Shown here in pieces: positions 7,831 through 27,270 of a stretch of 27,270 nucleotides of DNA. Under the pieces are notes generated by a model. The model saw only the letters and a program-made list of their open reading frames with translations. It was not told the origin of the DNA and made no database searches. The stretch's first letter is position 1. The number at the start of each line of letters is the position of its first letter. Source of the DNA: Rhizaria sp. SCN 62-66 (lineage: Eukaryota); the NCBI GenBank assembly GCA_001724265.1, contig MEDY01000237.1:62001-89270 (forward strand), written 5' to 3'. The position numbers and the translations under genes were made by a program.

Positions 7831-7861
<31 letters not shown>

Positions 7862-9226: not shown

Positions 9227-9264
<38 letters not shown>

Positions 9265-12032
9265 TGTTGCTGCTGCTGTTGCTGTTGCTGCGAAAGCTGT
9301 TTTTGCTGTTGCAGCACCTGCTGCTGGTGTTGCGCAAGAGAGGCGAAAGCAGGGTACTTTGACATCAACAAAGCGTTCATGTTGCCCGCATTAGCATCGT
9401 TGTGAGACTGCAATGTCTGTTGTTGCTGTTGCTGCTGCAGCTGCAGCTCTTGTTGCAGCTTCTGCAACGGCGATCGCGATCGCGGCTCCGACTGCAACCG
9501 CGACTGCAACTGACCATAAGCCCCAGCCCCAGCGCCAGCGCCAGCAGCACCAGCAGTAGCACTAGCAGCAACAGCAGCAGCAGCGGCAGTGGCAGCAGCA
9601 GCGGCAGTGGCATTAGCTGTAACAGGAACAGCGGCGGTGGCTTCGGTCTCCTCGTCCTCGATGCCGTCGCTCACGGTCACGCGCGAAGGGGACGACGTCG
9701 CCGCCGCTGCGGGTGCCGCCGCACTGCGGCTATGGCTGGGGCTATAACTCGCACCCAAACCAACACCAACATCAACAGCAACAGCAGCAGCAGCAGCATT
9801 AGCTTCGGTGTTAGTGATAGTGTGAGCAGAAGTGTTGTAGTTGTTGTTGCTATGCTGACTCTGGCTCTGGCTCTGACCCTTGTTCTGGCTGAGACTCGAA
9901 GCAGCTCCCCCTAAAGCCTGTGCCTCCGCCCGCGCGGCCCAGTACGCCCGCTCGCGCTCCTCAGCCTCGGCCTCGGCCGCGGTGGTGTCGGCCCCAGTCC
10001 CCGCCGCGGCGAGAGCTTCGGCACGGGCCGCAGCGCGCAGAGCGCGGTCGTGGGCGTCCATCTTGGCCGCCCAGTCAGAGGACGCGGCGTCGACGGGGTG
10101 ACCTTGGGCAGGAGTGGCGAAGGGACCGTGGGCAGCGGCAGTTGAGTGGCTGTGGGCAGCTGTGGTTGCAGCAGGAGTCATATCCGTGTTCGTGTTGCGA
10201 CTGCGCTGTTGCTGTTGTTGTTGGCCTTGTTGGTGTTGCTGTTGCTGATTCTGCTGACTCAGCAAGTGTAAGTACCCACTTAGACCCTCCCGCGGCGGGA
10301 AATCGTGAGCACGCGCCTCCTCTGCAGTCCAGACACCAGAGTACTCGAACACATCCTCGGCAGCAGCAGCGTGAGCGGGATTACTGAGGCCAGCGTTGTT
10401 ATAATAACCGAGATTATCCTTAGTGTGATTCGCCGTGAAATTGTTGTCGTTATACGGGTGATCATGTTCGTGTTGCCAATGCCGCGCCTCTGCCTCCGCC
10501 TCAGCCTTGACCATCTCTCGCGCCTTCATCGCATCATACGCCGCCCGCTGTTGCTCCTGCCACCCCGCCTGGTCCCCATGTGCTCCCCCATGGGTACCCA
10601 CGGGTCCGCGCGCCGCCGCCTGCGCCGCCGACACGCGCGGCCCCGCATCGTCCCCAAACCGCGCCGCCACCACCGGCAGCGACTCCGCAGCAGAGTCCAT
10701 GTTGCCTGCGGCGATGGCGCCCGCCGCGTGGGTCTGCGGCGGCGCGGCGAGGTAGTCGGGGTGTCGGTCGGGCCGCACCGCCGCGGGCGCATGTCCGGCG
10801 ACCGGGAACTCGGCCGCGTTGGGGCCGTGCAGGTGGCCCGCGGCGTGCGGCGGCAGCGGGCCCGCGGGGGGGAACGAGGCCACGGCCGTGGCGCCCGTCG
10901 AGGGCGGGGCTGCCATGGGCCAGGGGAACGACGACGCCGAGGGGGGCTGCGCGGCACCGTGCGTGCCCCCGTGTGTTCCACCGTGTGTACCGGGCGGGTT
11001 CGCGTCCGCGGTGGTGTAGTAGCGGTATGCGTGGCTCGTCGGGTCCAACATCTGCACTTGCTGTGCTTGCTGCGTCTGAGAGTGAGTGTTCGCCATGGAA
11101 TTGCCGTTATAAGTATTGTTATAAGTGTTGTTGTAAGTGCTCGGGGGCGGGTGGTCGGAGGGGAACGGCACCGGACTCGTCGGGTCGCCCCCGCCTGCAG
11201 TGCTGCCATGCCGGTACGCGTGATAACGCTGCTCACGGTCACCCGACGGAGCAGCAGAGTGACCGTGAGCAGCGGCAGCGGCGGCGCCGGGGGCAGCACC
11301 GCGGTCGGCGGTGTAAGCGTTATAGACGCCACCGCCGAGCCCCAGGCCCTGATCCTGCCCTGCTTGGCCCATAGCAGTGCCAGCGCCAGCGCCAATGTTG
11401 TAGACTGCGCCAGCGCTTGTGCTGGGGGCGTGGCCGAGCGCGCCGGGGGGGTTCGTGCCGGCGGCCGCACCCACGAGCATGGTCCCCGTCGGCTGCGGCA
11501 GCCTCGTCCCACCAGTGGCAGGAGTCAGATACGACGACTGCGGCTGCATGCCGGCCGCGAGCCCGGGAGCGGCGCCGGGAGCGCTGTTGCTGGGCCCGCC
11601 GCCGTAGCTCTGGTAGCTGTCACCGGCGGGGGCGGAACCCATGGCGACGGCAGGCGTGGGTGGGAAAGCTACTGCGGCAGGCGCGAGACCCAGCGCGGAG
11701 GCCGTCGACGTCAGGTGCGCAGGGGCCGCGGGGGCAGAACCGGGATACGCGGCCGCAGCGGAAGGCACGCCGACCAGGGACGTGCCCTGTGGAACGGGAG
11801 GCGCGGTAAGGGAGCCGGAGCTGCTCGCTGTGGGGTGACCATAACCCCCACCTTGCTGCTGCTGCTGTTGCTGCTGCTGATGTGCTTTGTTGGGGCCGTA
11901 GACGGCGCCCGTCGCTGGGAATAAGTGCTCCGCGGGAAGAGACGTCTCAAATGGGTTGGAAATAGAAGATGTGGAGAGGGCTTGGGGCGCGGCGCCGAAG
12001 GCAGCCTCCGGGGGAGGGCCGAGGTACGACAT
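2919..12032 (-). CDS. Very large intrinsically disordered protein (~3037 aa) with polyQ/polyA/polyN tracts, probable coiled coils and an RD/RE-rich segment; one in-frame TAG at 9057-9059
   Basis: Track ORFs 9057..12092 and 2919..9050 are in the same frame, joined by AAG TCT CAG GTC TAG TCA CAG TTG CAG TGC CAG (KSQV*SQLQCQQQ). First ATG at 12032 (MSYLGPPP), TAA at 2919-2921 followed by AT-rich DNA. There is no AT-rich spacer and no ATG at the junction. Confidence 0.8.
9228..9290 (-). repeat. CAG/CAA trinucleotide tract encoding 21 consecutive Gln
   Basis: 63 nt of (CTG/TTG)n on +, inside the large - strand CDS. Confidence 0.95.
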
Positions 12033-12919
12033 CGCTTGCAACGGGAAACTGTGATTCCAAGACCTGTGTGTAGAGAGCGAAGAGCGCGACAAGCATAGGT
12101 ATTATTTGAATTAATGTTAGATTGCTTATTGGCTAATTTGAATATTTGAAATTTAATCGCAGTGACAATGGCATGGCCTTTTTCCAGGTGGTGGAAGATC
12201 GCCTCCTCTTCTCAGCTCCCAGCTTGCCATGCCAAACGGCTCGATTCGTGGGGGTCCTTGGTCACGGCTGCGACAGAATATCAAAGACTTAAATATGCAA
12301 CAAAGTCTATATTTGTTGTATTTTTCATGTCTATTTTAAGAGAAAATTTAACATATTTTAACCACGCGTCTATATCAACATGTTTCATTGATATAGTGAT
12401 ACTTTCAATCGCTCTGCAGTGAGTGACAAACGTTATTGCAAACAGCAATCAACCAAGAGGCGTAAACAAGATAAAACTGGCATAAACAAGATAAAACTCA
12501 ACAAGAAAAAGTGAAAAAGTATATGTGTATTATAGGTGACCTTTTTACATGAAAAACTAGAAGTAATACGTGGTTTTTTGTGTTGTGCGACCGCATCATG
12601 ATACGGTGTCGCATTTGTGTTTTGGGTAATCAATGAGGCATTTGTACGTTAGAGCTTTGTAGGTTTGTTGTTGGCGCTGTTGTCGACGTCACAGAGTGGG
12701 GATTTATCCACTCTGCCGTCGCGCTTGCCTCGACTTTGTGATTGATTGTTGTCATATTTGAGCCTGTTTTGTTACCATTAAGGTTACAAGTTGGTAGTCG
12801 ATGTTGTGACAAGTTGACTGACGCGCATTAAGACCACGACAACAGAAAAAATACGTCAAGTATTCCCTGTCACACGTGTTCTAGAGTCACGCGTTCTTCT
12901 CGCCATAACAATCTCCTCC

Positions 12920-13435
12920 TTAGAAGTAGTTGACATGCTCGTCGGCTGCGATGGCCTGGCACTTAACGACCTCGACCTGCTTGTGGTTCGGGGGCAGGGG
13001 GCGGAAGAAGCGGCACGCAATGAACTCGGCCTCGGGCGCAGAGTTCGTGGTGGCGATCTTGACGAAGAAGTTGGTGCCGGCAACGACCTGGGCGCGGTAC
13101 TCGACGGGGGCCAGCGCGGCGGCGGCAGAGACGCCGAGCACACCAGTCAGAGAGAGGATCTGAGGGGTGGCGCCGGCGACGATGTCCTCCACGACGGGGT
13201 CCGCGGGGCGGATGTCGGAGGCACCGCCAGGGAGGGGAACCTGTGGTGCGGAGCGAGAGGGAGAACAAGAGTGATCAAGGGTGAGTCAAGTGGAGTCAAG
13301 GCGACGTAGGCAAGTGAGAAGACTGGGGGAAGTTGATATTGGGAAGAACAAAGAGAGAAGGAAACGTACGAAGCCCATAGCGGATGCGAGGACGCAAGCC
13401 AGGAGGACAAGGACGGCAACGGAAGTGAAGCGCAT
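12920..13435 (-). CDS. Cystatin (stefin/type-1-like cysteine protease inhibitor) with N-terminal signal peptide, 128 aa; exons 13435-13370 and 13240-12920
   Basis: Spliced product MRFTSVAVLVLLACVLASAMGF|VPLPGGASDIRPADPVVEDIVAGATPQI...EYRAQVVAGTNFFVKI...FIACRFFRPLPPNHKQVEVVKCQAIAADEHVNYF*. It has the N-terminal PGG, the QVVAG inhibitory loop, a stefin-like LP second loop and a C-terminal DE..xYF. Stop is TAA. Confidence 0.92.
13241..13369 (-). other. Spliceosomal GT-AG intron (129 nt, phase 0) in the cystatin gene
   Basis: Donor TTC|GTACGT, pyrimidine-rich body with an in-frame TGA (13286-13288), CTCAC/TTGAC branch-like motifs, acceptor CACCACAG|GTT. Splicing joins the signal peptide to the cystatin domain in frame. 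Confidence 0.9.
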
Positions 13436-14395
13436 TTGGAGCTGGGGGAAACTGTAGTGGTGGAAAGGGGAAAAAGGGAGGCACGTGGACAGAGGAGGGT
13501 GGAACGACGTTAGAATGGCACTTTGTCGAATGGCATAGACGCGTTTAAATGTGTAAAAGTGGAACAAAAACATTGAATTTGTGACCAAAAGACAGCAATA
13601 AAGCGCTTGTAAAAGTGCTGGAGTTCATGAAGGAAAATAAGAGGCCCTGAAAGGGAGCGATGTGAGTGAAACCGGATACCTCGTGGCCTCTCCTCGTCTC
13701 GTTCAAAACGGACACTTTCCAGAAGCACACAGCAGCACTCTTGCATAAGTAAGAGCAAATCGTAATCAACACCGAGTTTTACGTTTCTATGCATCAGTTT
13801 TAATCGCACAGACCCACGCACAAGCCTCCTTTAAGACTAGCTCATCTCCCCCCATAGCTTTGGCACCGACCAGCCAGCTGGTAGGTGGACGCTCCACGAC
13901 ATGGTCGAAAACGCGTTTGTGGTCATACGTGAAAAGTGAGATAAACGCATGCAGAACGAAGTGGTTGAAGAATAATTTGTTGTTTTTATTTGAAATAATG
14001 ATAATATCTTTTGCATATCGGCAAAACGACACATGTGTGTGCCCCTTTATCTATCTATATAGCTTTTCAACAGGGCAAAAATCTTACTTAAGTTCATGTG
14101 TTTGCAGTCATCTAATGACTTTGGGTTCTGATTCCGGTTTGTACGCAATTATAACTCACTGCTAGGAATGAAACAGCCGCTGAAATAAATAAATAGGTAA
14201 TCAGTCAAAGCTATCAGCCACTCCTAGGGTTCTCTTGTTTCCTCCAACCTCCCACTCATCGTTATCGTGTTTCGCACTCGCACGCACTCAAAGCTCTTCG
14301 CTCTTAGCTCTTAGCTCTGAGAGCTCGCCGCATACTCGCGCATCGCTGTCATGCCTGTATGCCTGCGCGCAGATCCGTCGCTTAGGATCGTTTGC

Positions 14396-15151
14396 TTAGG
14401 AGCGGGGCGCGACGGCGCAGACCTGGGCAGGGCGCAGCACGCGGTCCTGGATCATGTAGCCGTCCTTGATGATGAACGAGATGGTGCCAGGCTCCTGGTT
14501 GGGGTCGGGCAGCTGCGCCGTGACGTCGTGGAGGTTGGGGTCGACCTTCTGGCCGAGCGACTCGTACTTAGCCACGCCCTGGCCGGCGAGGACCTTGGCG
14601 AATGTCGCCTGGGTCATCGTGATGCCCTCGAGCATGTTGCGCAGGGGCTCGTTGTCAGCGTTGGCGGCCAGCTGCTTGTTGCCGGCGCCGATGGCCATGT
14701 CGACGGTGTCGGCGACGTCGAGCAGCGCCTTGCAGAAGGACGAGATGCCGAACTTCTTGGCGGAGGCGACGTCCTTAGCCGTGCGCTCGCGGATCGCGTC
14801 CTGCTCGGCCACCTCGGCCACCACGCGGTCCTGCAGCTCCTTGACCTTGGACTGCACCTCGCGGGTGCCCAGCTCGGCCTTGGCCAGCGCAGCCTTAAGC
14901 GTGTCGACCTGCTTCGACAGCTCCGCGGTGCGGGCCGCCGCGGCGGCAGTCGCGGCGCGCTCCGTATCGAGCAGGGCCTCGAGCGACTCGACAGTCACCT
15001 CCTGCACGGCCTCCTTGTCCGCGGGCGCGGCCGTGGTGAAGCGGCGCAGGGTCACGGAGCGGGAAGAGAAGAGCGACGAGGTGGACGCGGCCGAGGAGGA
15101 GACGCGGGAGATGGCGCCGGCCGTGCGGGTGAAGGTGGAGAATGCACGCAT
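14396..15151 (-). CDS. grpE: Mitochondrial GrpE (Mge1) Hsp70 nucleotide-exchange factor, 251 aa, intronless
   Basis: GrpE motifs: IRERTAKDVASAKKFGISSFCKALLDVAD, MLEGITMT, SLGQKVDPNLHD, PGTISFIIKDGYMIQDRVLRPAQVCAV. The Ser/Arg/Thr-rich, acid-free N-terminus (MRAFSTFTRT...LRRF) looks like a mitochondrial presequence. ATG 15151, TAA 14396-14398. Confidence 0.95.
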   Translation of the reverse strand: MRAFSTFTRTAGAISRVSSSAASTSSLFSSRSVTLRRFTTAAPADKEAVQEVTVESLEALLDTERAATAAAAARTAELSKQVDTLKAALAKAELGTREVQSKVKELQDRVVAEVAEQDAIRERTAKDVASAKKFGISSFCKALLDVADTVDMAIGAGNKQLAANADNEPLRNMLEGITMTQATFAKVLAGQGVAKYESLGQKVDPNLHDVTAQLPDPNQEPGTISFIIKDGYMIQDRVLRPAQVCAVAPRS

Positions 15152-15754
15152 TATCGAGACTGAGTAGGGGCGGTGCGACAACAAATGAAAGAGACATAAA
15201 TATATTTAGTTGTTGTGAGCAAGCTTGTGAAGAGAAAATGTGTCTATAAGCAAATTAAAAGATAGAACGGGGGCGATTTCGAGGTCTCGGAGCACCGACT
15301 CGAGTGAAGAAATGACGTGGTCACGGCAATTGAACACAGAAGTGCATTATGGCTCCATTCAGACTCAACAGTAAATCATAGTGAAGATAACCCATAAAGA
15401 TACGCTGCGGTATCAATAACAACAACAACCGCAACGTTTCTATGCTGCATCTGGCCTACGGACTTTGGACCTGTTTCGCTTCTCTGTCCGCTCCGACTCC
15501 ACTCCGGTGACCGTGTCGCACCGTTTCCACCACAAATTATTCGTTCGATTGGAACAAACTCAAGAAAAGTGATGCTGCTACCGCTGATCCAAAAAGACAA
15601 AGCATGGGGAAATTTCACAAAAGCTTTGACCAGTGGCATTAAATGTTGTTGGGGTGTATTAATATTAAGTACTACGTAAGCTGTGAGAATTAGTTCATAT
15701 TTTCAATAAAGTTGATTTTCATTCACGCGCGAGTATATCCCGCATATCTCTGTT

Positions 15755-18700
15755 TTAAAGAGCGGCGAAGGGTGTCTTGACAAGCGTATCCGTGCCCTTT
15801 GCGGAGCGGGCGAGCGTCTTAAGGAATCCCAGCGCAAGCAGCGACTGCGCAGCGCGCTCAAACCGGGCCTGGATCGGCACGCTGTTGAGCAGTTCGCGGA
15901 TTTGGGGCGTCATACGGAGCATCTTACCGCCTCCAGCGCAGGAGCGACGAGGCTTGCGACCACGGCGCTTCCGCACGCTACTGGTCTCTCCCTCCTCTTC
16001 CTCCTGCTCCTCCTCCTCTTCTCCGTCGTCGTCGTCGTCGTTGCTGTCATTGTTGTCGTCGTTACCGTCTGTGTCGGACATCGCGCGGCGCTTAGCCCCG
16101 CCCTTGCGCTTCGACTTGGCAGCTTTACCAGATGACTCTGCATCATCATCGTCGTCGGCATCGTCAGAGTCAGGATCGTCGAGGTCGTCTTGGTCAACAA
16201 ACTCGACTTCAACCCCCGCCGCGGCGCACGCAAATGCAAGGAACCACTCTCCAGCCTTGACGACACTGTCACTGCCCTCCAGAAGCCCCGCGGCAAGTGT
16301 GATATCGTCGCTGCCGCGGCCGAGACTCGCGCCCGCGCCCGCCGCCGCCGCCGCAGCAGCCGCCGCAGCCGCGGGGCCGCCACGGAAAGGCGCGCCCGAG
16401 AGCAGAACGCTGTTCTGCTGCAGACCGCCGCCGTGGGAGCTTGTGAGCGTCGTAGCGGTGGCGGCGACGACTGCGGCGAGCGCGGCCGTGCCCTTTGAGC
16501 GGAGGAAGTTTAGCCGCATGTGCGATGGCACCGCGTCGGCGCCGGCGGCCCAGTACGCTGCAACAGGGGGCGCAAGCGCGTCGACCGAGGCCGCGTCAAG
16601 GCCCCAGAGACGGGGTGGGGCGCCCACCGCGGGCGCGGAGGAGCTCCGGGCATCTGAGTGGCCGTGAGCCGGAGCCTGGGAGTGACTGGGCTGGGGCGGA
16701 ATGAGGGCGACGGAAGGCGGCAGCAGCATGTGAGGCAGCGGTTTGGTATCGCAACGCTGCTGTTGCTGCTTGAGCTTGAGCCTCTGCTGCTTCTTCTGCT
16801 GCTGTTGAGCCTTCGGGGTCGTCCCAGTGCGCTTGCCATGAGCACTGTCGTTGTCACTGTCACCGTCACCAATCACGACGCTGGCGTCCGAGCCACCGCG
16901 TGCGCTACTGTTACTGTTACTGTTGCCGTTGATACTCTCGGTTGCGCCAGTGGCGGCAGCCCAGAGCCCGACAGCCCGGAGTCCGGCCCAGGCCCCCACG
17001 CTGCCCTCCGCGTCGACTACGCCCGCAGCAGAGCCACTGGAGGCGCTGGCGTTCGAGGCGGCGCGGACTTGCGCGGCCGCCTGCTCGGCCGTGACCGCCG
17101 CCGCCTCTGCCGCGAGATAGAACCCGCCCGCGGCGGCCCCGGCGACGGCGGCGCGCGCGTCCGCGGCCGGCTCGGCTAACCCAGCGGCCGAGGCGACGGC
17201 CTCGAGGTCGCCGGGGGCGGCTCCGGCGAGTTGGGCCTCGTGCAAGGGCAGGCTGGACAGAGGAGTGCCAGCCCAGGGCAGGAGGGTGCAGAGCGCGCGG
17301 AGACAGCGCTGGCGCAGGGTATGCTCGTCGGGAGCGATGAACACAGAGCTGGGGTCGGTGCTATCGCAATTGTCGGCGCTCGCACTCGCATTCGCACTGT
17401 TATCACCCATGCTATTGTTGTTCGTGCTGTTCGAGAATCTGAGCGCGGTTGCCGCGGCGGGCCGTTGCGGCTGCGCCTGTGAGCGCGAGGCAGAGTACCG
17501 GTGGCTTGCGCGCGAGGGAGAGACGGGCGGTGTCTTGTACTCGACGCCGTCAGCGCCACCGTTGGAGTCGCCAACGTTGTCGCCGGTGTCGTCGTCATCG
17601 TCACACATCGCTTTACCGGCATTTGCACCTGCAACGGCTGCAGCGGCGGCTTGCGCCTTTGCGATCATGCGTTGAGCCACGGCCTCCTCCTCAGCGTCAG
17701 CTTCGGCAGCAGCAGCCGCAGCAGCCGCAGCCTCCGCCCCAGCGCCAGCACCAGCTACTTTCGCAGCAGTCGCGGCGGCAAGAGGGCCCTGGATGTACGC
17801 AACGACCTCCTCGGACGCGGTCTTGACTGCGGCGGCGGCGACGCCAAGCGTGCCGACGTACACGACGCCGCCGCAGCGCGGGGATGGCAGCGCGGCGCGC
17901 GCGGCGACGGCGAGCGCGGAGGCCAGTTCGTCAAGGCTCGAGCTGAGAGAGAGCAGAGATACGGTCGATGTCACTGTGAGCAAGTGACTGAAGCCTAAAG
18001 TTAGTGCGGGGGACAGAGAAGCAGCGGCCTCAGCCTCTGCAGCAGCGATGGCCGTTGAGACACAATTCGAATCGGCACTTGCGCGTGCACTCGCGCTCGC
18101 TGCAGCGTCACAGCTGGTGCTGATCTCAGCGCTGGAAACAGGAGCAGATGCAAGGGCCGCGGCAGCAGCACCGCGACCGCCCCGCCGAGACGGCGACTCA
18201 TAACTTGCATTCAACGACACAGAAACAGAAGTGCTAGAGGCCCCAATATTGCTCGCACTGTATGCGCTCGCGTTCGAGCTACTCGGCGTGCCAGGAGCGC
18301 TCTTCTGTGGTTGATGTTGTCGCTGTGCGACCATGCGCGCCGCAGCCTCCGCGGACCCCGCGACGGGCATGTACGTCAGCATCTGCCGCGCCACCGCGGC
18401 CTGCTGCTGCGTCTCCCGCACGAACGTCCCCGCGGTGGCGCCGGAAGGCAGCGCGAAGAGCAGCGCGAGCACGGTCGGCGGAAGCGACGCGAAGCGCGGC
18501 GCGAGGTGCGACAGGAACGCGGTCAACACGGGCAGCAACAGCGGCCGCGCCAGCAACGCCAGGTCCCAGTCGCGCAGCAGCAGCGACAGGCGGTGCAGGG
18601 CCGCGCGCGGGAGAGGCCACGGCAGCGGGGCAAACGCCGGGTCTTCAGACTGCGCCCCTGCAACAGTGGGCGACTGGGAGCAGGCGAGTGCGGAGAGCCG

Positions 18701-21700
18701 GCCCGTGAGGACCCACCGGCGCAGCGCGGGCGCGACGGACGGCAGCGCGAGCAGCGCGGAGACGTCGGCGCGCGAGAGCGATAGGCACAGCGCGGTGAGC
18801 TGCGGCGGCGGCGCGGGCGCGGAGCGGGGGACCGTGGTCTGGCCCAGCTGCAACAGGAAGACCTGCGACTGCGGCCGTGAAATGGTCTTGGCAGCTGCAG
18901 AAGTCGTGCTTGCGCTGTTGGCTGCTGATTGAAGAGGGGCAGTGCTGCTGGTCGGCAGTAAGACGTCCGAAGCCACGTTAGCAGTGGTCGCAGGTGACGC
19001 GGTAGCAGAAGCGCGACCGCGGCTGCGGGCACCGCCTCGGCCGCGCGCAGCAGCAGCACGAGGACTCGCATCTGCGTTAACGATCCTGTTGTTGTTCGCT
19101 GCGGTCTCAGTTCCGGGCTCAGCCTTGACAATAATATCGTCATTCATACTGCTGTTCAATTGAACATTCGAGCTCATACGATTACTGCTGTTAGCAAAAG
19201 ATGATAGCGCATAACCAAGGCCACTCATTGTCATCTTCGCGGCCACTACTGCGTTCTCAGCATCCCGCCCCACGGGATCCACGCACGCGATAGGTCCCCG
19301 CCTCTTCACTATGGCCGGAGCCGGCAGCGCAGTGGCGAGCACCCACGTCGGTCCCCGCGCGCGCACGTGATGCAGCATGTACGCCGCGCGGACAACGCGC
19401 CATGCGAGCGCGTCACCGCCAGCGGCCGCAGCGGCAGCCAGCCCACCGCCAACGCTGGCATTCGCTCCGGAGCCTGCGGCAGAGCCAGCGGCGCCACCAG
19501 CGCTGCCATTGCCCACGCTGTTGGGGGCTGCATGTGCGCCTGACGCCATGGCTTCGAGCGCAAGCTGTGCAATGCGGGGGTCCAGAGTGAGGCCGCTGGG
19601 GAAGAGGGCCGCATGAAGAGCGAGCGAGGCGATGCCCGGCGCGGTGGAGTCGGAGTGCCAGACCGTGGGGGCGGCAGGGGGAAGCATGTGCAGAGAACGG
19701 CAGAGGAAGGCGTTGGCGCCGGTCTCAGAGCCAGAGGCAGAGCCAGTGGCAGAGTTGGGGCCGGCGGAGTTCGCGCCGAAGTGGGCGACGGAGAGGAGCG
19801 CAGAGGCGGAGGCAGAAGCAGCGGCAGTGATTGCAGCAGCCGTGCTGCTCTCGGAGTTGTTCTCGATCGGATTAGATGCTATCATAACAACGGCAGCGGA
19901 AGCAGAAGCAGAGCTAGTGGTATCAGCATCAGAAGCCGACTTAAACTCAGAATCTGTGATCGCGATATTCTTGCTAGCAATGGTACCAGTCGCAATGCTA
20001 CTGCTGCTGTGGGTGAGTGTCAGCTGTGGCTGCTGCTGTTGAAGTTGTTGCTGCTGCTGCGGTTGCTGTTGCGAAGCCGGTGTGACCTGTGTGAAGCTGC
20101 ACAGACTCACCACATCCGGCGGCAACACCACGTGCACCGCGCCGGCACTCATCCCCACGATCGCTGCGGCGACCGTAGGGACGCGCGACACCACTGTGCC
20201 CGACGCCCAGTACCGCAGGAAACCGCCGAAGACGGGCCCCGCCGCGGCTTCGGCGTCAGCGACCACCAGCGCCAGCTGTGGCATCGTGGCGGCGGCCAAC
20301 GGTACCGGCGCCGGCGCCGGCAGCAGTGGGTACAACGGCCGCAGCGCGGCACCACGGACCAGCGCGCGCGCGTGCGCGTTGACGCAGTGGCGCGCAAGCG
20401 AGAGCAGCAGGCGGGCGCGCGCGCGGTGCCAGCGCTGCGCGTACACCCAGTGCTCGGTGAAGTACCGGAAAAAACCCAGCTCCAAGTCGGCGGCGGTGCC
20501 GCGGCCGCAGAGCGCGACGCAGACGCGGGCGATCGCGGCCGCAGCATGGTTTTGTGGCTGCAGCGCGAGTAGCAGCGCGGTGTCGGGCAGCGCGCGGGGC
20601 AGGGCAGTAACGGGGCGTGCAGTGGTGATCGCGATCGTGCTCTTGCGGGTCGCTTCGTCGATCTCGTCGCTGTCGGTGTCAGTGCCGGAGTCCTCACACT
20701 TGACGCCTCCGCGAGCAGTGGCGCTGTCGGCGTTGGGGCTCGCACTCGCGTCTTCGTCGTCGTCAGAGTCAGCCATGACTGCGGGCGAGCGAGCGCCGCC
20801 GCGGGCGTTTGCCCGCCTCTTGGTGGGAGTGCGCGAACTCTCATCATCATCGTCATCATCGTCGTCATCATCGTCGTCGTCGTTATCGACACGCTTCTTG
20901 CCGGATTCAGACTTAATATTCTTGTTTCTCGCATTCCCGCCATCATCATCAGCAGCATCATCAACATCGTCATCATCATCGCCAATGTAGCTCAGACCAT
21001 CACCGTGAGCACCGTCAGTGCCTGAGCTCGCGTTCGCAAGCAGAGCGGCAATTCCCCTGCCCGCCGTGTTTCCGGCCCCGCCCAGATTCAGCGCCAGCGC
21101 CGCCGCGGTCCGCGCGTTGCTCCCGTCGGCCTTGCCGTCGGCGACCAGCCCGCGCACGGCGTCCTGCAGCGCCGACAGCAGCGCGCGCGCGGCGCTGAGC
21201 CCGCCGTCCGAGTCGCCGAAGACGGCGGTGAACACCTCGCCCTCCCACTCCTCGATGCGACTCGCAGTCGTGCTTGCGCTTACACTTGCATTCGCACTCG
21301 CAGCATTCGCGTTCGTGTTGACGTTGCCGGGCGTGTGACCGGCGAGGAAGAGCTCGTCCTCGAGCGCAATACGACGCATGCGCGCGTACTCGCTGAACAG
21401 ATCCAGGTGCGGCCGCCCCAGCGCGCGCCGCTGCAGCTTGTGTCGGAGCGTCGCAATCGCGCGCTTGAGCTTGGGCGTCAGCCGGAACGCGGCGACCTCG
21501 AGCAGCACGGCGCGCGTGGCGGCGGCGTGCAGCGCGGCGCAGAGATCGGAGTCGCGCCGCGCCGCCGCCAGCGCTTCGCGGAAGGAATCCGCCGCGACCG
21601 TGAGCGCACGCGATGACACGCGGCGCAGGATGTCGGTGGCGTCGGCCGCGGTCGTCTGGTCCGTCACGGCAGGCGGCAGCGACGGGCGCGAGGCGCGGGG

Positions 21701-24700
21701 AAGCGCCGGCAGGGCGAGCGCGCGCAGCGAGTGCGGCCCGTTCGGATCAGCCTTCACGTCGTCAGCAGCGCTGCCGCCCTGTGAGGGCTTAACGTCCGTC
21801 AGCGCGTTAGCGCTGTTGGTGTCCTCGTCGTCGTCCGTCTCTTCTGGCGGCGCGTCCCCGCCCAGCGCCGCCGCGGCCGCGAGCGCTGCGGCGGCGGCGA
21901 CGACAATGACGCCGGACTCGCGCCGCAGCTTCTCCTCGCGCTGCCGCGCGCGACGGGCCACGCGGCTCGCCTCGACCTGCTGGCGGCGGCGGCGCACGAT
22001 CCAGGCCGCGTCCAGCGGGTGCGGGCGCGCGTAGCTATAACCGCCAAAGGGAAACTTGGCGGCAAGCGCAGCAGAAGCGGCGGGATCGGCAGCGACAGCA
22101 GATGTCGACGCTGTGAGCGCGTCGTTTGCAGCATTGATGGCACTCGAGCTTGCGAACGCACTGCTACTCGAGTCGCTGCTGCTGCTCTCACTACTGAGAG
22201 CAAGCGCGTGCGCGGACTGCGCGAGTGCGGCTACGGCGGCGCGGCGCGCGGTGCGGTGGCAGTGCAACGCGGCGCTGCTGGCCACGCGCACGCCGGACGT
22301 CTTGCCCTGTGAGCACGCCTCGTGCAGCGCGAACGGCGGCGGGAACGCCGTGATGAGCGAGCACAGTGTGAACCGCAACACCGAGTCCAGCGCGCCCGCG
22401 CTCGCGCCAACGCCAATGTAGCGCGTGTGCGCGTACGCGTCGGCCGTGGCGGCAACGGCAGCCGCGGAGGCGCCTCCGGCCGCGGCGTCAGCGGCAGCAG
22501 CAGCGGCACTTGCGGCGCCGGGGGCGAAGAGCGACACGGGCACGGTTTGCGTGAGTAACAAGGCGGGGCGCGGGGGCATCAGCGAGCTGACGATGCGCTC
22601 GCACTCGGCAGCGGCGGCCACGGTCAACGCGTGATTAGCGGCGCTCGCAGCCGTTGTGTTGGCGCTAGGAGTAGCGGGCAGCGCAAACGCAGGTGTGGGC
22701 GCGGGCGGCACTGAGGCAGCGGAGGCAAGCGTGCTCTTGACGGCGTCCGCGGCTGAGTGCTTCGCGGAGATGTCGATGCCGGCGACGACGACGGCAACGG
22801 GCAAGGGACGGGTGGGGCGGGCGAGCGCGGCGGCCTTGATCTCAGCAGAGATCGTGTCGCCCTCGGGAGTATTTGGGCTGTCGAATAAAGACTCATCACT
22901 ATTGCCAGAGCTAAAGCTAGACTTCAGTGCGATACTCTTCATCTTACTCTTCGACGCAGCAAGGGTTTCAGCCGCAGCTGTAACCTTCTCGAGCGCCGTG
23001 TGCGCGCGAGCTGCAGCCACAAACGACAGAATACTGCTCGAACCGTCCCCATTACTGTTAATGCTCGCATTCACGTTTGCATTCTGCTCAGTCGTCGCAC
23101 TTGCAGACGCGGTCGCAGGCGCCAGTGCGTCACCGGCGTTAGTAACAGCAGCGTTCGTAATCGCGCCAGCGCTACTGTAGGTATAGTTCCCGTTGCCAGA
23201 CGCCTGGTCGTGAGTCACCGTGAGCACCGGCACAGACCCAGCGCCAGCGCCGGAGCCGGAGCCGGTGACGGCGCCAGCGACGGAGACGGAGGCCGGGATC
23301 GAGCCCGGGCGCACGGTGTCGGGGAAGAACCTCTGCGCGGCCGCGAGCGCGGCGGTCATCGCGGCGGCGCGGCGATGCATCGCGGTCGAGTCCTCGCCGG
23401 AGTAAGCCGTGATGAGGCCGGAAGAGGGCTCGTAGCAGTCGCCGCCGGCGCTGAGCGCAAGCGCGGCGAGCAGGGCCTGCCAGTCGCGTGATTGCGAGTC
23501 GCGGAGTCCGGACTCATCAGCAGCAGCGGCCGCAGATGACGACGATGATTTGACAGTGCTTGCGTCGATCTCAACCTTCACACCGCTGTTGTTGTTGCTG
23601 TTATCGTATGGCAGCATGAGTGCAGTGAGAGGAATGACAACTTCGTCCCCTGTAGCAGCCGCGCTCGTAGCCAGCGCGCTGACATCAACACCCAGCTCGT
23701 CGCACTCATCAGCATTACTCGCACTCGCAAAATTGTTGTTAGAGCCAGCGCTAGCGTCCTTGCTCAGCGCGTACGTGCGCGGCTGCTGCGCGTGCGGCGG
23801 CTTGGCGAGGCGCATGCCGGGCGGCGCGGCCGGCACGGGCAGGCTCACGGTCACCGGCACCGACAGCACGGCCGCGTGCACGCCGGCGTGCGCCACCGCG
23901 CCCAGCGCCGACTGCACGGGCAGCGCGTCGCCCACCACGCCCGTCAGGCGGGACACAGCGCTCGCGGCCGCGGCGGCTGCGGCGGCGGACGCGCCGGGCG
24001 CGGCCACGGGCGCGGGGGCCGGGATAATTGCGCCCAGCTGCGCCTTAGCGGCGTCGCGCAGTGGGGCTGACAGCGCCAGCGCGCGCGGGTCCGTGAGCGG
24101 GGTCGTCAGCAGCACCGACGCCGCTGTCGCGGCCAGATCCGCGGCGCCCGTGGCCGTCGTCGTGGGCGCCAGCGGACCCGTGGCGGCCGCGAGCGTCGCC
24201 GCCGCCGCGGTCAGCCCGCGCGCGCGGCGCCGCAGCGTGCCGGGCAGCGTGTTGCCCTGCGTGCGCACGATGTTGTCCGCGTGCAGGACGTCGCCCAGCG
24301 TCAGCGCGCGCTGCGTCTGCACGCCGCTGCCATCGCCGTCGACCACGCCGCTCAGCGCGCTCACTGAGCTGCTGACATTGCCGCTGGCGATGTTGTTCGC
24401 GTCCGCGACGGCGTCGGCGACCGAGAACACGCCGCCGCCGCCGACGCTGGCGTTGCTGGTCGCGTCGGCCGCGTGCGGCTCGAGCGTTGTGAGCGCCTGC
24501 GCGATGTCCGCAGGTGTCAGCGTGCGCGCCGCGTCGCCCATCGCGATGCGCGCGGCCGACAGCTTGTGGTAGCTGCTGTCGCCGGCGGTCACCGCGGCCG
24601 TCTGGATCAGCGCTGCGGTCGACTTGCGCGGGCGGCCGCGGGCGGGCATCGCGGGGGCGCTCTTGCCGCCGCCGCTGCCGCTGCCGCTGCTGTTGCCTGC

Positions 24701-27268
24701 GCCGTCGTTGAGGGCAAACTGCGGATCGTTGGCCGCGAGCGCGATCGCCTGCCTCGACGCGGCGCCGCGCTGCGAGGAAGCGAATGCGAGGCGCGGCTGC
24801 AAGTAGTACGACAGGAACAGCGCGCCGAGCTCCGAGCTGGCCGTGGCGCGCACGGGCCGCGGCCGCGGGACCGGGGCGAAGGACACCGTTTCTGTCGCAG
24901 TCTCGGTCTTCACAGCAGAGTCGTCACTCATCACGGTCACGGTACTGTTAGCATTCGTGTTGTTCGTATTGGGCGTGGCGGGCTGAGTCTTTGAGCGGCC
25001 GCGGCCCCTGCTGGGGGAGACAGGAGCTGCAGCGGCAGAATCAGTTGCATTTGCACCGGTCGCATTCGTCTGCGGAACGCCAGTCGGGAGAATCGTAATC
25101 GCAGTACCGATAGCGCTATTATTGATATTCACAGCGGCCGTACGCGTGCGTGTGCGTGTGCAGAGGATGAGTCGCGCCAGCAGCGCCGTCGCGAAGGCCA
25201 GCTCGCCGGCCGCGGAGGGCGCGTCGGTGTAGCGCATCTGCCGGTCGACGCTGTGCAAGGCTTCGCTGTAGGCGTCAGCGGCGGCGGCGTCGGACGCGGT
25301 GGCCAGTGACGCGGCCGTCACACCGTTCGAAGTCACCTCGGTCGAAGCCTCATTGGGATCAACCGCGGATGCAGACGCTGAGTTAAAGCTAGAGTTAGAA
25401 CTAAAACTCAAGCCCGAGCTCGAGACTTGTTGACTCTTCACTGTGCACACTGTGCTTGCGTTGTCGCTCGCGGCGTTACTGCTGCTCTGAGAGAGATAGG
25501 CGTCGTCGATGACAACGGGCCGCACGGGCAGCGCGGACCGGAGCCCGCCGCGGAAGGGCACGGCGTGGCCCTGCGCCAGCGGCAGCAGGTCCCACTCGGC
25601 CGCCTCCACCAGCGCGCGCAGCGCAGCACGGGGCACGGCCAAACCGGCGCGCGCCGAGACCAACTGTGGTGCAGCACCCGCATCCGCACTGGTGCTGGCG
25701 CTAGAACTCGAGCTAGCGCTAGAGCGACTGGGACCGGCGGTGTTCTTAAGCGCGGCATTGGGGGGACGAGGGAGCGCGCGGGAGAGCATCGCGTGCAGCG
25801 CGCGCGCCGCCACGGTCAGCGCCCACTGACGCGGCACCGCGCGCGCGCCGTCAGCCGCGGCGGGGACCGAGACCGCGAGTCCTGCGTGATTGCCAGCACG
25901 AGCTCCACTGCTGCTACTATTACCAATACAACTGCTGGGCAAAGTGTTCGATATGCCGGCGCGCGCGAGGACGGCGGCGGCAGTGCGGGCAATGGCGGCG
26001 GCGGCGGCAGCAACGACGGACCCATGCCCGGCCGCGAGGGCCCAGGCCAGCGCGCCGGGGGCGGTCGCTACAGTCGGCGCCAGGCCCAGCAGCGCGACAC
26101 TGGCACTGTTGTTACTGTTATAGTTCATGCTGCTGTCAGCGATGGCGTTAATCGTGGCGATGTGGCCCACTGCAGTGGCGCGCGCGTGCGCAGCGGCCGC
26201 GGCGCCCAGCGAGGGCGGAAAGCGCAGCGGCGCAGCAACCGTGAGCGGCACCGGCGCGGCGGGCGCGGCGGGCGCGGTCTGGGGGAGCACGATGTCGTTC
26301 TGTGGCGCCAGCGGCGGGAAAGGTAGCGGGACGTAGGCGCCCGCGAAGGCCGCGCGGGGCAGCGCCAGCACTGCGACGGGGCCCGCGGGCGCCGAGGGGG
26401 CCACAGCCGCGGTCGCGCTCACTGACGCACTTGCACTCGCACGCGCAGTCGCTGCGTCGGTGTCATTTGCGCACTGCGAGAAAGCGAACGGAAGCGACGA
26501 GGTGATAACATCGGCGGTATTCTCACTTGTGTTAACAGCGGGGATGCCAAGCGTCATGCGTTGCAGCGGCAGCGCCGAAGGCTGCCTCTCCATGCGCGTG
26601 GCCGCCATCGCGGTCGCCGCCGCCGCCGCGGCCGCCGCGGCCGCCGCGGTGGCCGTGGTGGCGGGCAGCAGCTCGGCGACCAGGTCTGCCACTGCGTCGC
26701 GGTAACGCCGCGCGCCGGCGCCGCCCGCACTTCCGCCGTCGTCACCGTCGCCGTCGCTGCTGTTGCTGCGGCTGCTTTTGTCGTCATCGTCGTCGTCGTC
26801 GTCGTCGTCATCGTCGTTGAGAGGGCGAGTGCGGGGGCGGCCCCGGCCGCGACCGCTGCCGCCGCGACCGCCACGGCTGCCGCGGCCGCGGCCGGGGGTG
26901 CTTGAGCTAGCGCCACGGCCACGGCCACGGCCGCGACCACGCCCGCCGCGAGCACCGCTGCGGCCGCTGCTGTTGTTGTCGGTATCACTATCATCCTCCT
27001 CGTCCTCGTCCTCGTCCTCGTCGTCGCCGTCGCCTTGAGTGAGTTTGGCGTCGTGTCTGCGCGAGATGAGCGAGAGCGCGTCCCCGTCGTCGTCGTGGCC
27101 GTCAAACGCCTCGCCGGACGCAGTCGGCAGCAGCATCGCAGCGGCCTTGTCCTTCTTGCCCTTCTTGCCCTTGCGCTCGCCGTCGCTGCCCTCGTCATCG
27201 TCGTCGTCGCTGTCGCCATCAGCCCTGGCGCGGCTGTTGCTGCGGCTACCCCCGCGCCCGCCGCGCCC
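15755..27268 (-). CDS. ORC3: Giant origin recognition complex subunit 3-like protein (>=3837 aa, 5'-truncated) with low-complexity insertions and AT-hooks
   Basis: The frame is open past the track's ATG (27136) to the window edge. Motifs collinear with ORC3 as recalled: PLPVAVVVAGIDIS (~22770-22808), QLALVVADAEAAAGPVFGGFL...IVGMSAGAVHVVLPPDVVSLC (~20100-20280), LFPSGLTLDPRI...VVRAAYMLHH (~19365-19606), LSRADVSALLALPSV (~18735-18780), and a C-terminal winged helix DITLAAGLL...VKAGEWFLAF...IQARFERAAQSLLALGFLK...TDTL (15755-16310). Stop is TAA. Confidence 0.78.
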   Translation of the reverse strand, partial: GRGGRGGSRSNSRARADGDSDDDDDEGSDGERKGKKGKKDKAAAMLLPTASGEAFDGHDDDGDALSLISRRHDAKLTQGDGDDEDEDEDEEDDSDTDNNSSGRSGARGGRGRGRGRGRGASSSTPGRGRGSRGGRGGSGRGRGRPRTRPLNDDDDDDDDDDDDKSSRSNSSDGDGDDGGSAGGAGARRYRDAVADLVAELLPATTATAAAAAAAAAAATAMAATRMERQPSALPLQRMTLGIPAVNTSENTADVITSSLPFAFSQCANDTDAATARASASASVSATAAVAPSAPAGPVAVLALPRAAFAGAYVPLPFPPLAPQNDIVLPQTAPAAPAAPVPLTVAAPLRFPPSLGAAAAAHARATAVGHIATINAIADSSMNYNSNNSASVALLGLAPTVATAPGALAWALAAGHGSVVAAAAAAIARTAAAVLARAGISNTLPSSCIGNSSSSGARAGNHAGLAVSVPAAADGARAVPRQWALTVAARALHAMLSRALPRPPNAALKNTAGPSRSSASSSSSASTSADAGAAPQLVSARAGLAVPRAALRALVEAAEWDLLPLAQGHAVPFRGGLRSALPVRPVVIDDAYLSQSSSNAASDNASTVCTVKSQQVSSSGLSFSSNSSFNSASASAVDPNEASTEVTSNGVTAASLATASDAAAADAYSEALHSVDRQMRYTDAPSAAGELAFATALLARLILCTRTRTRTAAVNINNSAIGTAITILPTGVPQTNATGANATDSAAAAPVSPSRGRGRSKTQPATPNTNNTNANSTVTVMSDDSAVKTETATETVSFAPVPRPRPVRATASSELGALFLSYYLQPRLAFASSQRGAASRQAIALAANDPQFALNDGAGNSSGSGSGGGKSAPAMPARGRPRKSTAALIQTAAVTAGDSSYHKLSAARIAMGDAARTLTPADIAQALTTLEPHAADATSNASVGGGGVFSVADAVADANNIASGNVSSSVSALSGVVDGDGSGVQTQRALTLGDVLHADNIVRTQGNTLPGTLRRRARGLTAAAATLAAATGPLAPTTTATGAADLAATAASVLLTTPLTDPRALALSAPLRDAAKAQLGAIIPAPAPVAAPGASAAAAAAAASAVSRLTGVVGDALPVQSALGAVAHAGVHAAVLSVPVTVSLPVPAAPPGMRLAKPPHAQQPRTYALSKDASAGSNNNFASASNADECDELGVDVSALATSAAATGDEVVIPLTALMLPYDNSNNNSGVKVEIDASTVKSSSSSAAAAADESGLRDSQSRDWQALLAALALSAGGDCYEPSSGLITAYSGEDSTAMHRRAAAMTAALAAAQRFFPDTVRPGSIPASVSVAGAVTGSGSGAGAGSVPVLTVTHDQASGNGNYTYSSAGAITNAAVTNAGDALAPATASASATTEQNANVNASINSNGDGSSSILSFVAAARAHTALEKVTAAAETLAASKSKMKSIALKSSFSSGNSDESLFDSPNTPEGDTISAEIKAAALARPTRPLPVAVVVAGIDISAKHSAADAVKSTLASAASVPPAPTPAFALPATPSANTTAASAANHALTVAAAAECERIVSSLMPPRPALLLTQTVPVSLFAPGAASAAAAAADAAAGGASAAAVAATADAYAHTRYIGVGASAGALDSVLRFTLCSLITAFPPPFALHEACSQGKTSGVRVASSAALHCHRTARRAAVAALAQSAHALALSSESSSSDSSSSAFASSSAINAANDALTASTSAVAADPAASAALAAKFPFGGYSYARPHPLDAAWIVRRRRQQVEASRVARRARQREEKLRRESGVIVVAAAAALAAAAALGGDAPPEETDDDEDTNSANALTDVKPSQGGSAADDVKADPNGPHSLRALALPALPRASRPSLPPAVTDQTTAADATDILRRVSSRALTVAADSFREALAAARRDSDLCAALHAAATRAVLLEVAAFRLTPKLKRAIATLRHKLQRRALGRPHLDLFSEYARMRRIALEDELFLAGHTPGNVNTNANAASANASVSASTTASRIEEWEGEVFTAVFGDSDGGLSAARALLSALQDAVRGLVADGKADGSNARTAAALALNLGGAGNTAGRGIAALLANASSGTDGAHGDGLSYIGDDDDDVDDAADDDGGNARNKNIKSESGKKRVDNDDDDDDDDDDDDDESSRTPTKRRANARGGARSPAVMADSDDDEDASASPNADSATARGGVKCEDSGTDTDSDEIDEATRKSTIAITTARPVTALPRALPDTALLLALQPQNHAAAAIARVCVALCGRGTAADLELGFFRYFTEHWVYAQRWHRARARLLLSLARHCVNAHARALVRGAALRPLYPLLPAPAPVPLAAATMPQLALVVADAEAAAGPVFGGFLRYWASGTVVSRVPTVAAAIVGMSAGAVHVVLPPDVVSLCSFTQVTPASQQQPQQQQQLQQQQPQLTLTHSSSSIATGTIASKNIAITDSEFKSASDADTTSSASASAAVVMIASNPIENNSESSTAAAITAAASASASALLSVAHFGANSAGPNSATGSASGSETGANAFLCRSLHMLPPAAPTVWHSDSTAPGIASLALHAALFPSGLTLDPRIAQLALEAMASGAHAAPNSVGNGSAGGAAGSAAGSGANASVGGGLAAAAAAGGDALAWRVVRAAYMLHHVRARGPTWVLATALPAPAIVKRRGPIACVDPVGRDAENAVVAAKMTMSGLGYALSSFANSSNRMSSNVQLNSSMNDDIIVKAEPGTETAANNNRIVNADASPRAAAARGRGGARSRGRASATASPATTANVASDVLLPTSSTAPLQSAANSASTTSAAAKTISRPQSQVFLLQLGQTTVPRSAPAPPPQLTALCLSLSRADVSALLALPSVAPALRRWVLTGRLSALACSQSPTVAGAQSEDPAFAPLPWPLPRAALHRLSLLLRDWDLALLARPLLLPVLTAFLSHLAPRFASLPPTVLALLFALPSGATAGTFVRETQQQAAVARQMLTYMPVAGSAEAAARMVAQRQHQPQKSAPGTPSSSNASAYSASNIGASSTSVSVSLNASYESPSRRGGRGAAAAALASAPVSSAEISTSCDAAASASARASADSNCVSTAIAAAEAEAAASLSPALTLGFSHLLTVTSTVSLLSLSSSLDELASALAVAARAALPSPRCGGVVYVGTLGVAAAAVKTASEEVVAYIQGPLAAATAAKVAGAGAGAEAAAAAAAAAEADAEEEAVAQRMIAKAQAAAAAVAGANAGKAMCDDDDDTGDNVGDSNGGADGVEYKTPPVSPSRASHRYSASRSQAQPQRPAAATALRFSNSTNNNSMGDNSANASASADNCDSTDPSSVFIAPDEHTLRQRCLRALCTLLPWAGTPLSSLPLHEAQLAGAAPGDLEAVASAAGLAEPAADARAAVAGAAAGGFYLAAEAAAVTAEQAAAQVRAASNASASSGSAAGVVDAEGSVGAWAGLRAVGLWAAATGATESINGNSNSNSSARGGSDASVVIGDGDSDNDSAHGKRTGTTPKAQQQQKKQQRLKLKQQQQRCDTKPLPHMLLPPSVALIPPQPSHSQAPAHGHSDARSSSAPAVGAPPRLWGLDAASVDALAPPVAAYWAAGADAVPSHMRLNFLRSKGTAALAAVVAATATTLTSSHGGGLQQNSVLLSGAPFRGGPAAAAAAAAAAAGAGASLGRGSDDITLAAGLLEGSDSVVKAGEWFLAFACAAAGVEVEFVDQDDLDDPDSDDADDDDDAESSGKAAKSKRKGGAKRRAMSDTDGNDDNNDSNDDDDDGEEEEEQEEEEGETSSVRKRRGRKPRRSCAGGGKMLRMTPQIRELLNSVPIQARFERAAQSLLALGFLKTLARSAKGTDTLVKTPFAAL

Positions 27269-27270
27269 GC

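Follow-up and report, generated by a model that had tools for sequence, protein, structure and literature searches.

A giant low-complexity-rich protist gene with a weakly ORC3-like C-terminal tail

The window analysed here is a stretch of 27,270 nucleotides from contig MEDY01000237.1 of the Rhizaria sp. SCN 62-66 assembly (GCA_001724265.1; positions 62,001 to 89,270 of the forward strand). It is dominated by a single minus-strand reading frame of more than 3,800 codons, referred to below as the giant frame and its product as the giant protein. With modest confidence, we favour the view that the giant protein is an insert-laden and highly divergent ORC3, which is the non-catalytic scaffold subunit in the origin recognition complex (ORC). 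The reading is based chiefly on the last 35 residues of the protein, where a sub-threshold match to a C-terminal domain profile of ORC3 ends where the protein ends.

The giant frame and its transcripts

Between positions 15755 and 27268 the minus strand contains one stop-free frame of 3,837 codons, which is open at its 5' end at the window edge and closed by a TAA stop codon at 15755-15757. The first ATG within the window, at 27136, would give a protein of 3,793 residues. Base composition predicts approximately 77 stops per 3,837 codons (ln P(no stop) approximately -77), and the five other frames over the same interval contain 37, 43, 68, 121 and 158 stops, with a longest open run of 378 codons. 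A chance open frame in GC-rich DNA was ruled out on these grounds, zero stops being observed against the ~77 expected. The uninterrupted frame of 11.5 kb described in the first-pass annotation of this DNA was therefore borne out. The principal features of the gene, from the whole frame and then from N- to C-terminus, are as follows; GC3 denotes the GC content at third codon positions.

15755..27268, minus strand: giant frame, 3,837 codons plus TAA, encoding a protein of at least 3,793-3,837 residues
26834..26845, minus strand (residues 142-145): RGRP core in a part of the N-terminus rich in RG/RGG, with a poly-Asp run after it
23819..25018, minus strand (residues 751-1150): unassigned region towards the N-terminus in which codon bias is at its highest for this gene (GC3 0.85-0.94), including a block at 24780-24840 singled out in the first-pass annotation
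24629..24640, minus strand (residues 877-880): AT-hook-like RGRP core flanked by basic residues, within the region of highest GC3
20069..20656, minus strand (residues 2205-2400): longest contiguous higher-complexity block (GC3 0.82-0.89), including a block at 20100-20280 previously proposed as ORC3_N-like
18419..18868, minus strand (residues 2801-2950): hydrophobic helix-like block (GC3 0.88-0.91)
16232..16309, minus strand (residues 3654-3679): candidate first half of a winged helix, with short motif sites at 3655 and 3670 and no Pfam support
15941..16201, minus strand (residues 3690-3776): acidic insert with runs of D/E/N that closes with a basic patch and separates the candidate halves of the winged helix
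15950..15964, minus strand (residues 3769-3773): AT-hook-like RGRKP sequence at the centre of the basic patch; 7-residue windows rich in K/R (5 or more) begin at 3765-3769
15773..15874, minus strand (residues 3799-3832): ORC_WH_C-like tail, a sub-threshold Pfam match to the last 31 profile positions

Alanine makes up 22.5% of the giant protein, followed by serine (11.3%), leucine (8.2%), glycine (7.7%) and aspartate (6.3%). The alternation of hydrophobic blocks with A/S/N/D-rich inserts that had been noted earlier was recovered, and it was found to carry a codon-level signature in GC3 as well. In windows of 100 codons, GC3 was 0.85-0.94 in the higher-complexity blocks (residues ~751-1150, 1551-1650, 1751-2050, 2201-2350, 2801-2950 and 3301-3400) and 0.50-0.70 in the S/N/D/T/Q/G-rich inserts. 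Likewise, in a comparison of 63 windows, each of 60 codons, GC3 was negatively correlated with S/N/D/T/Q/G content (Spearman rho -0.50, p 3e-5), and 81% of Ala codons in block-like windows had G or C at the third position compared to 62% in insert-like windows. Tandem Repeats Finder reported 17 rows, all of them short arrays of at most 59 bases. As these arrays are short, the inserts are considered to be cryptic low complexity rather than recent repeats. The two RGRP cores, the RGRKP basic patch, the RG repeats and the poly-acidic runs resemble features of nuclear, DNA-binding proteins.

To follow transcription, assembled contigs (not reads) of four sequencing runs were compared with the window over 12000-27270. 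Contigs of a poly-A metatranscriptome run, X5, were colinear with the giant frame at 17345-17937, 17999-18321, 18541-18867, 19235-19539, 20853-21269, 21558-21901, 22307-22692 and 24433-24995, with 0-1 mismatches and no gaps. Two cDNA runs, X6 and X9, added more colinear pieces, such as 19978-20364 and 20986-21181, and contigs of the three runs together showed 0-2 mismatches and no gaps. Runs X6 and X9 behave as RNA, since they contain a spliced contig of an adjoining cystatin-like gene, in which a 129-base GT..AG intron (13241-13369) has been removed, at a depth of 52-60, and since their depth is zero in the spacer bins 12000-12509 and 13530-14549. Several RNA-run contigs are continuous over inserts of low GC3, and over the junctions of blocks with inserts, in the giant frame. 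The RNA-run pieces listed cover well under the whole frame, and stretches without listed cover carry no meaning.

The cystatin intron alone has GT..AG ends among the 15 contig joints listed (54 further joints were reported beyond these). Within the giant frame, the sides of the listed joints measure 20-33 bases and their ends are non-canonical; these joints are clustered at GAT/GAC and GCN runs (20841-20885 and 23964-23988). A full-length colinear mRNA of the giant gene is likely. Overall, the giant frame is best read as a real nuclear gene of an uncultured microbial eukaryote of wastewater or bioreactors, transcribed and seemingly unspliced.

Evidence bearing on an ORC3 identity

Two Pfam families were of primary interest, namely ORC3_N (PF07034), for the N-terminal AAA+-like domain of ORC3, and ORC_WH_C (PF18137), for its winged helix, the latter described as a C-terminal domain with 133 profile positions and a gathering cut-off of 26.4 bits. 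When 13 pieces of the giant protein, of 58-500 residues, were searched against Pfam, ORC_WH_C was matched in three C-terminal pieces only. The scores were 17.2 bits (E 0.0058) for the last 58 residues, 15.4 bits (E 0.021) for a piece of 198 residues and 11.8 bits (E 0.28) for one of 437 residues. In each case the alignment placed profile positions 101-131 of 133 on residues 3799-3832 of 3837, such that the end of the profile coincides with the end of the protein.

The whole protein was also divided into 127 tiles of 60 residues. ORC_WH_C was matched in the last tile only, with the lowest E-value of the set (0.0063; 17.1-17.2 bits over this tile and the 58-residue piece), and the next-best tile matches were to Receptor_IA-2 (0.024), DUF1028 (0.027), DUF7519 (0.033), DUF4611 (0.036) and Herpes_capsid (0.042). 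Six tiles matched at E<0.05 where approximately 6.4 would be expected by chance, indicating that E-values are well calibrated on this composition. The ORC_WH_C match stands out from the other tile matches by its position, since domain and protein finish at exactly the same point. For this family at the last tile specifically, the chance probability is approximately 2.5e-7 (E/24,736, by our arithmetic); a match by chance could land on any family and on any tile. Set against a prior of about one gene in ten thousand, and allowing for score inflation in helical A/L-rich sequence, this tips the balance slightly towards ORC3. ORC_WH_C is the one Pfam family with a sensible fit to some part of the giant protein. 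A low score need not be disqualifying here, as the adjoining cystatin-like gene, whose second exon carries the clear cystatin motif QVVAG, likewise scores below the cut-off of its own family (19.9 bits compared to 22.2 for Pfam Cystatin); sub-threshold Pfam scores can thus be real in this lineage, and the organism's proteins seem as a rule to diverge from Pfam seeds.

It had also been claimed that motifs of human ORC3 occur in order along the giant protein. Four human strings quoted with that claim were scanned over the protein using ungapped BLOSUM62 scores. The 19-residue string scored 48 at residue 3799, a value reached by none of 2,000 shuffles (shuffle maximum 41), and its best score in a neighbouring 3,057-residue control frame was 22. 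Two shorter strings scored 15 and 17 at residues 3655 and 3670, each the second-best site in the protein and each at chance level when taken singly, and a 4-residue string was uninformative. Upstream of the tail, the two shorter-string sites keep the expected order and lie 7 residues apart. A pair in this order with a spacing of at most 15 residues arose anywhere in 14 of 5,000 shuffles, and within the 200 residues before the tail in none of 5,000. These tests favour the earlier claim in their design, given that the strings were picked post hoc and that the observed scores served as thresholds.

Several results weigh against an ORC3 identity. The whole giant protein matched no Pfam family at E<=1, and the ORC_WH_C match itself, at 17.2 bits, lies below the cut-off of 26.4 bits, weakens in longer pieces and is gone when the whole protein is used. 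Approximately 0.8 chance matches at E<=0.0063 are expected in 127 tiles, and an E-value of about 0.006 is at chance level for the best of that number. ORC3_N, the larger and defining domain, was unmatched at E<=10 in the whole protein, in all 13 pieces, in all of 16 chosen blocks and in all 127 tiles, with the caveat that fragments split by inserts of hundreds of residues may fall under the HMMER filters. None of the 16 chosen blocks matched any ORC family, among them the block at 20100-20280, the candidate first winged-helix half and both putative N-terminal blocks. The first half of ORC_WH_C was unmatched both in these blocks and in the 127 tiles. No Pfam family was matched by the 751-1150 region in pieces, chosen blocks or tiles, or by the 2801-2950 block in chosen blocks or tiles. 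By our estimate, the 19-residue match of score 48 would fail a proteome-wide correction. In addition, contigs of the sequencing runs differ from the window within the giant frame (19377-25216) by eight single bases, seven of which change a residue; these may hint at weak constraint or may be errors of low-depth contigs.

Searches for relatives point in the same direction. Using phmmer against the PDB at E<=10, no ORC subunit was found with the last 58 residues (no match), residues 2205-2400 (no match), the whole protein (four matches) or the last 198 residues (19 matches). The PDB matches of the C-terminal part were to acidic low-complexity segments, together with an AT-hook-like stretch of a CTCF chain (RRGRPPGR) to which the RGRKP patch, residues 3766-3776, was aligned. 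A word-indexed search with region 3300-3837 found no homologue among proteins of 2110-6715 residues, and one with region 3776-3837 among shorter proteins gave 72 candidates, none at E<=10. An HMMER scan of 1.84 billion representative proteins with residues 2205-3404 gave no match, the giant protein itself not even being found, and a scan of Joint Genome Institute (JGI) metagenomes with residues 2205-2960 gave 597 pattern matches, none of them related. In 14 control genomes, examined as a source of real ORC3 sequences for comparison, ORC_WH_C gave no match. As the searches yielded no homologue, evidence of conservation is lacking for every block of the protein.

Structure prediction was affected by the same scarcity. 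Single-sequence AlphaFold2 models had a mean predicted local distance difference test (pLDDT) score of 43.9 for residues 3545-3837 and 41.7 for residues 2205-2400, both too poor for a fold search; the models are unusable because no relatives were found for an alignment. A complex prediction of the two candidate winged-helix halves, residues 3640-3700 with 3776-3837, scored 0.02 against a mark of 0.34, with the partner fold uncertain, and counts neither way. In the ESM Atlas there was no usable match for the tail, and the matches of block 2205-2400 were at chance level (0.80-0.83) and named as HEAT/ARM-type repeats, not AAA+. The assignment of the 20100-20280 block to ORC3_N accordingly has no Pfam, PDB or Atlas support. 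Several blocks between residues ~1487 and ~2392 may resemble strands of the AAA+-like core of ORC3, a likeness that no tool confirmed.

Taken together, a significant profile or structure match for the C-terminus and the 20100-20280 block was sought and none above threshold was obtained. Of the proposed homology to ORC3, what survives is a tail match in the right place; the match is sub-threshold, and neither ORC3_N nor an ORC chain in the PDB accompanies it. From sequence comparison, membership of the ORC3 family is not established.

Interpretation as a possible insert-laden ORC3

Canonical ORC3 has a length of approximately 600-750 residues, the figure used in the first-pass annotation. The giant protein is like it in that its tail is the best Pfam match to the end of ORC_WH_C and lies at the very C-terminus, and in that the candidate winged helix is broken by a loop ahead of its final helix. 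It is unlike canonical ORC3 in being more than five times longer, with more than 1,400 N-terminal residues that have no counterpart, in lacking any ORC3_N signal or match to a solved chain, and in an ORC_WH_C score below the cut-off. If it is an ORC3, it would to our knowledge be by far the largest ORC subunit, although no literature search on subunit sizes was made.

Under the favoured ORC3 reading, constraint on codons and sequence would preserve short folded modules, and long disordered loops rich in A/S/N/D would link them. An acidic loop of ~120 residues, ending in the basic AT-hook-like patch, would split the C-terminal winged helix, and the remaining blocks would make up the AAA+-like body of ORC3. 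The loops may extrude from the ORC ring, leaving the canonical mechanism unchanged, while the RGRP/RGRKP patches and the RG-rich N-terminus could add non-specific or AT-biased DNA contacts. Such an added function could reside in the RGRP cores at 142 and 877, in the RGRKP patch immediately ahead of the final element of the winged helix, in the N-terminus with its RG repeats and in the strongly codon-biased region 751-1150.

Disordered extensions of this kind have counterparts among ORC proteins. Fission-yeast Orc4 has AT-hook repeats, and human ORC1, ORC2 and CDC6 are reported to carry intrinsically disordered regions. The giant protein may be compared with fission-yeast Orc4 and with metazoan ORC1 and CDC6, whose N-terminal regions are disordered, in having DNA-binding or self-associating disordered extensions outside an AAA+/winged-helix core, represented here by two RGRP cores, RGRKP and RG repeats. 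It differs in that the extensions would be on ORC3, would also lie inside the folded core as giant loops, and include two or three hook-like cores only. The ORC3 insertion domain is itself reported to be variable among animals.

A further parallel may exist in Yarrowia lipolytica, where, according to a preprint, a basic patch of Orc3 (Orc3-BP, K671/R672/K673) contacts the DNA minor groove (bioRxiv 10.64898/2026.03.10.710760). The RGRKP-centred patch of the giant protein lies ~20 residues before the ORC3-like tail and could be equated with it by analogy, each being a basic cluster near the C-terminal end of its protein; unlike the patch in Yarrowia, it closes an acidic insert of ~90 residues. 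Plasmodium offers a precedent for poor recognisability. Its ORC3 and ORC4 were long too dissimilar for clear identification, and only putative homologues were proposed later, according to a review (PMC5872521). The giant protein would resemble these in being a protist ORC subunit that is hard to recognise by homology.

A stronger version of the ORC3 reading holds that the protein belongs to an unsampled protist lineage and has its own DNA-targeting elements, by which it, instead of ORC1 or ORC4, would steer licensing to intergenic DNA, which is AT-richer (43-53% GC) than the genes (63-75% GC per kb). The AT-hook-like patches, one of them within the winged helix before its last helix, the RG-rich N-terminus and the codon-optimised N-terminal region of ~400 residues might all serve such a role, and we regard this version as unlikely.

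Two further explanations dispense with a giant ORC3 altogether. The protein could be a lineage-specific giant nuclear protein unrelated to ORC, largely disordered and perhaps with helical-repeat blocks, whose tail resembles ORC_WH_C through chance or through convergence of an amphipathic helix and turn. We give this explanation appreciable, though minority, weight. It accounts for a sub-threshold ORC_WH_C match whose E-value is expected for the best of 127 tiles, for the failure of ORC3_N to match at any point and of any PDB ORC3 to be found, for the HEAT/ARM-type names of the Atlas look-alikes of block 2205-2400 (though at chance-level scores) and for the absence of homologues of residues 2205-3404 from 1.84 billion representative proteins. 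The adjoining frames, moreover, are equally large and without family, and giant orphans seem to be common in this organism. What it leaves to coincidence is the positional, end-to-end agreement with a C-terminal domain and the ordered motif pair upstream of it, and the other tile matches at E<0.05, such as Herpes_capsid, Receptor_IA-2 and DUF1028, make no sense by biology or position. Alternatively, the gene model may be wrong, either because stop-free introns lie in frame or because an N-terminal gene of more than 1,400 residues has been fused with a smaller ORC3-like gene, in which case the mature protein would be much shorter. Spliceosomal introns do exist here, as that of the cystatin-like gene is spliced in X6 and X9; the listed RNA-run pieces cover the giant frame only partly, Logan contigs cannot reveal transcript ends, and the low-GC3 inserts differ from the blocks in codon usage. 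This explanation seems to us very improbable, given that RNA contigs are unbroken across inserts and borders (X5 at 17345-17937, 17999-18321 and 20853-21269; X6 at 19978-20364), that none of the listed in-frame joints has canonical ends and that 3,837 stop-free codons imply translation. There is also no AT-rich, stop-rich stretch inside the frame like the spacers (GC 0.43-0.53); the lowest GC of any 1-kb stretch within it is 0.63.

If the ORC3 reading is correct, the gene would reveal how extensively disordered loops can break up a ring-forming AAA+ scaffold that is nonetheless retained. It would also point to a protist lineage, found repeatedly in metagenomes of wastewater and bioreactors from several studies, whose proteins, the cystatin included, escape standard profile searches. 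If the assignment is wrong, the protein would be one more giant orphan of low complexity.

Neighbouring genes and host lineage

The remainder of the window contains the following genes and frames.

14396-15154, minus strand: gene encoding GrpE (E 1e-39 against Pfam GrpE), which lies downstream of the giant frame at a distance of 600 bases and has an N-terminus resembling a targeting presequence
12923-13435, minus strand: cystatin-like secreted gene; exon 1 at 13370-13435 (22 residues, signal-peptide-like), exon 2 at 12923-13240
2919-12092, minus strand: pair of low-complexity open reading frames of 1,011 and 2,043 codons in one frame, split by a single TAG at 9054-9056 with no AT-rich spacer
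285-2618, plus strand: 777-codon A/S/D/G-rich frame, a further case of low-complexity inflation

Coding stretches of the window have 61-75% GC per kb, and the spacers at 12.1-12.9, 13.45-14.35 and 15.2-15.75 kb fall to 43-53%. These GC-rich genes with AT-richer spacers, the spliced cystatin intron and the GrpE gene indicate eukaryotic nuclear DNA. A viral or prokaryotic origin was ruled out by the adjoining spliceosomal intron together with the mitochondrial-type GrpE. Rfam and tRNA scans of the window found nothing.

The pair of frames at 2919-12092 may be one gene of ~3,050 residues, its internal TAG being an error of sequencing, a stop that is read through or a nonsense mutation that arose recently. 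Both this pair and the 777-codon frame are A/S/Q/N/G-rich and matched no Pfam family. Low-complexity inserts thus seem to inflate the proteins of this organism generally. As the neighbouring genes are equally inflated, the size of the giant protein is probably a proteome-wide habit rather than the mark of a special licensing complex, and size alone says little about licensing mechanism. The earlier suggestion of an unusual origin-licensing complex is weakened accordingly.

Six studies, one of them possibly its source, contributed metagenome runs from bioreactors, wastewater and activated sludge whose contigs contain the stretch; the DNA runs X1-X3 contain 0.91-1.00 of its sampled words. Relatives of the GrpE were found among metagenome proteins at 77, 61, 55 and 56% identity, and the nearest named relative was a chytrid protein annotated as mitochondrial, which at 37% identity does not place the host lineage. 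Contigs of runs X4 and X5 differ from the GrpE of the window almost wholly at third codon positions (14426-14657), and this distribution indicates that those samples also contain a near relative, whether another strain or another species.

A second metagenome scan by way of the GrpE relatives gave four loci. One of these, comprising 20,456 bases of a 156-kb metagenome contig with a GC content of ~0.5, surrounds the relative with 56% identity. It was not syntenic with the window, tblastn found nothing in it that matches the giant protein, and its largest open reading frame encodes 974 residues. The locus may come from a less closely related member of this unsampled lineage. Its GrpE itself bears a poly-Q/A insert.

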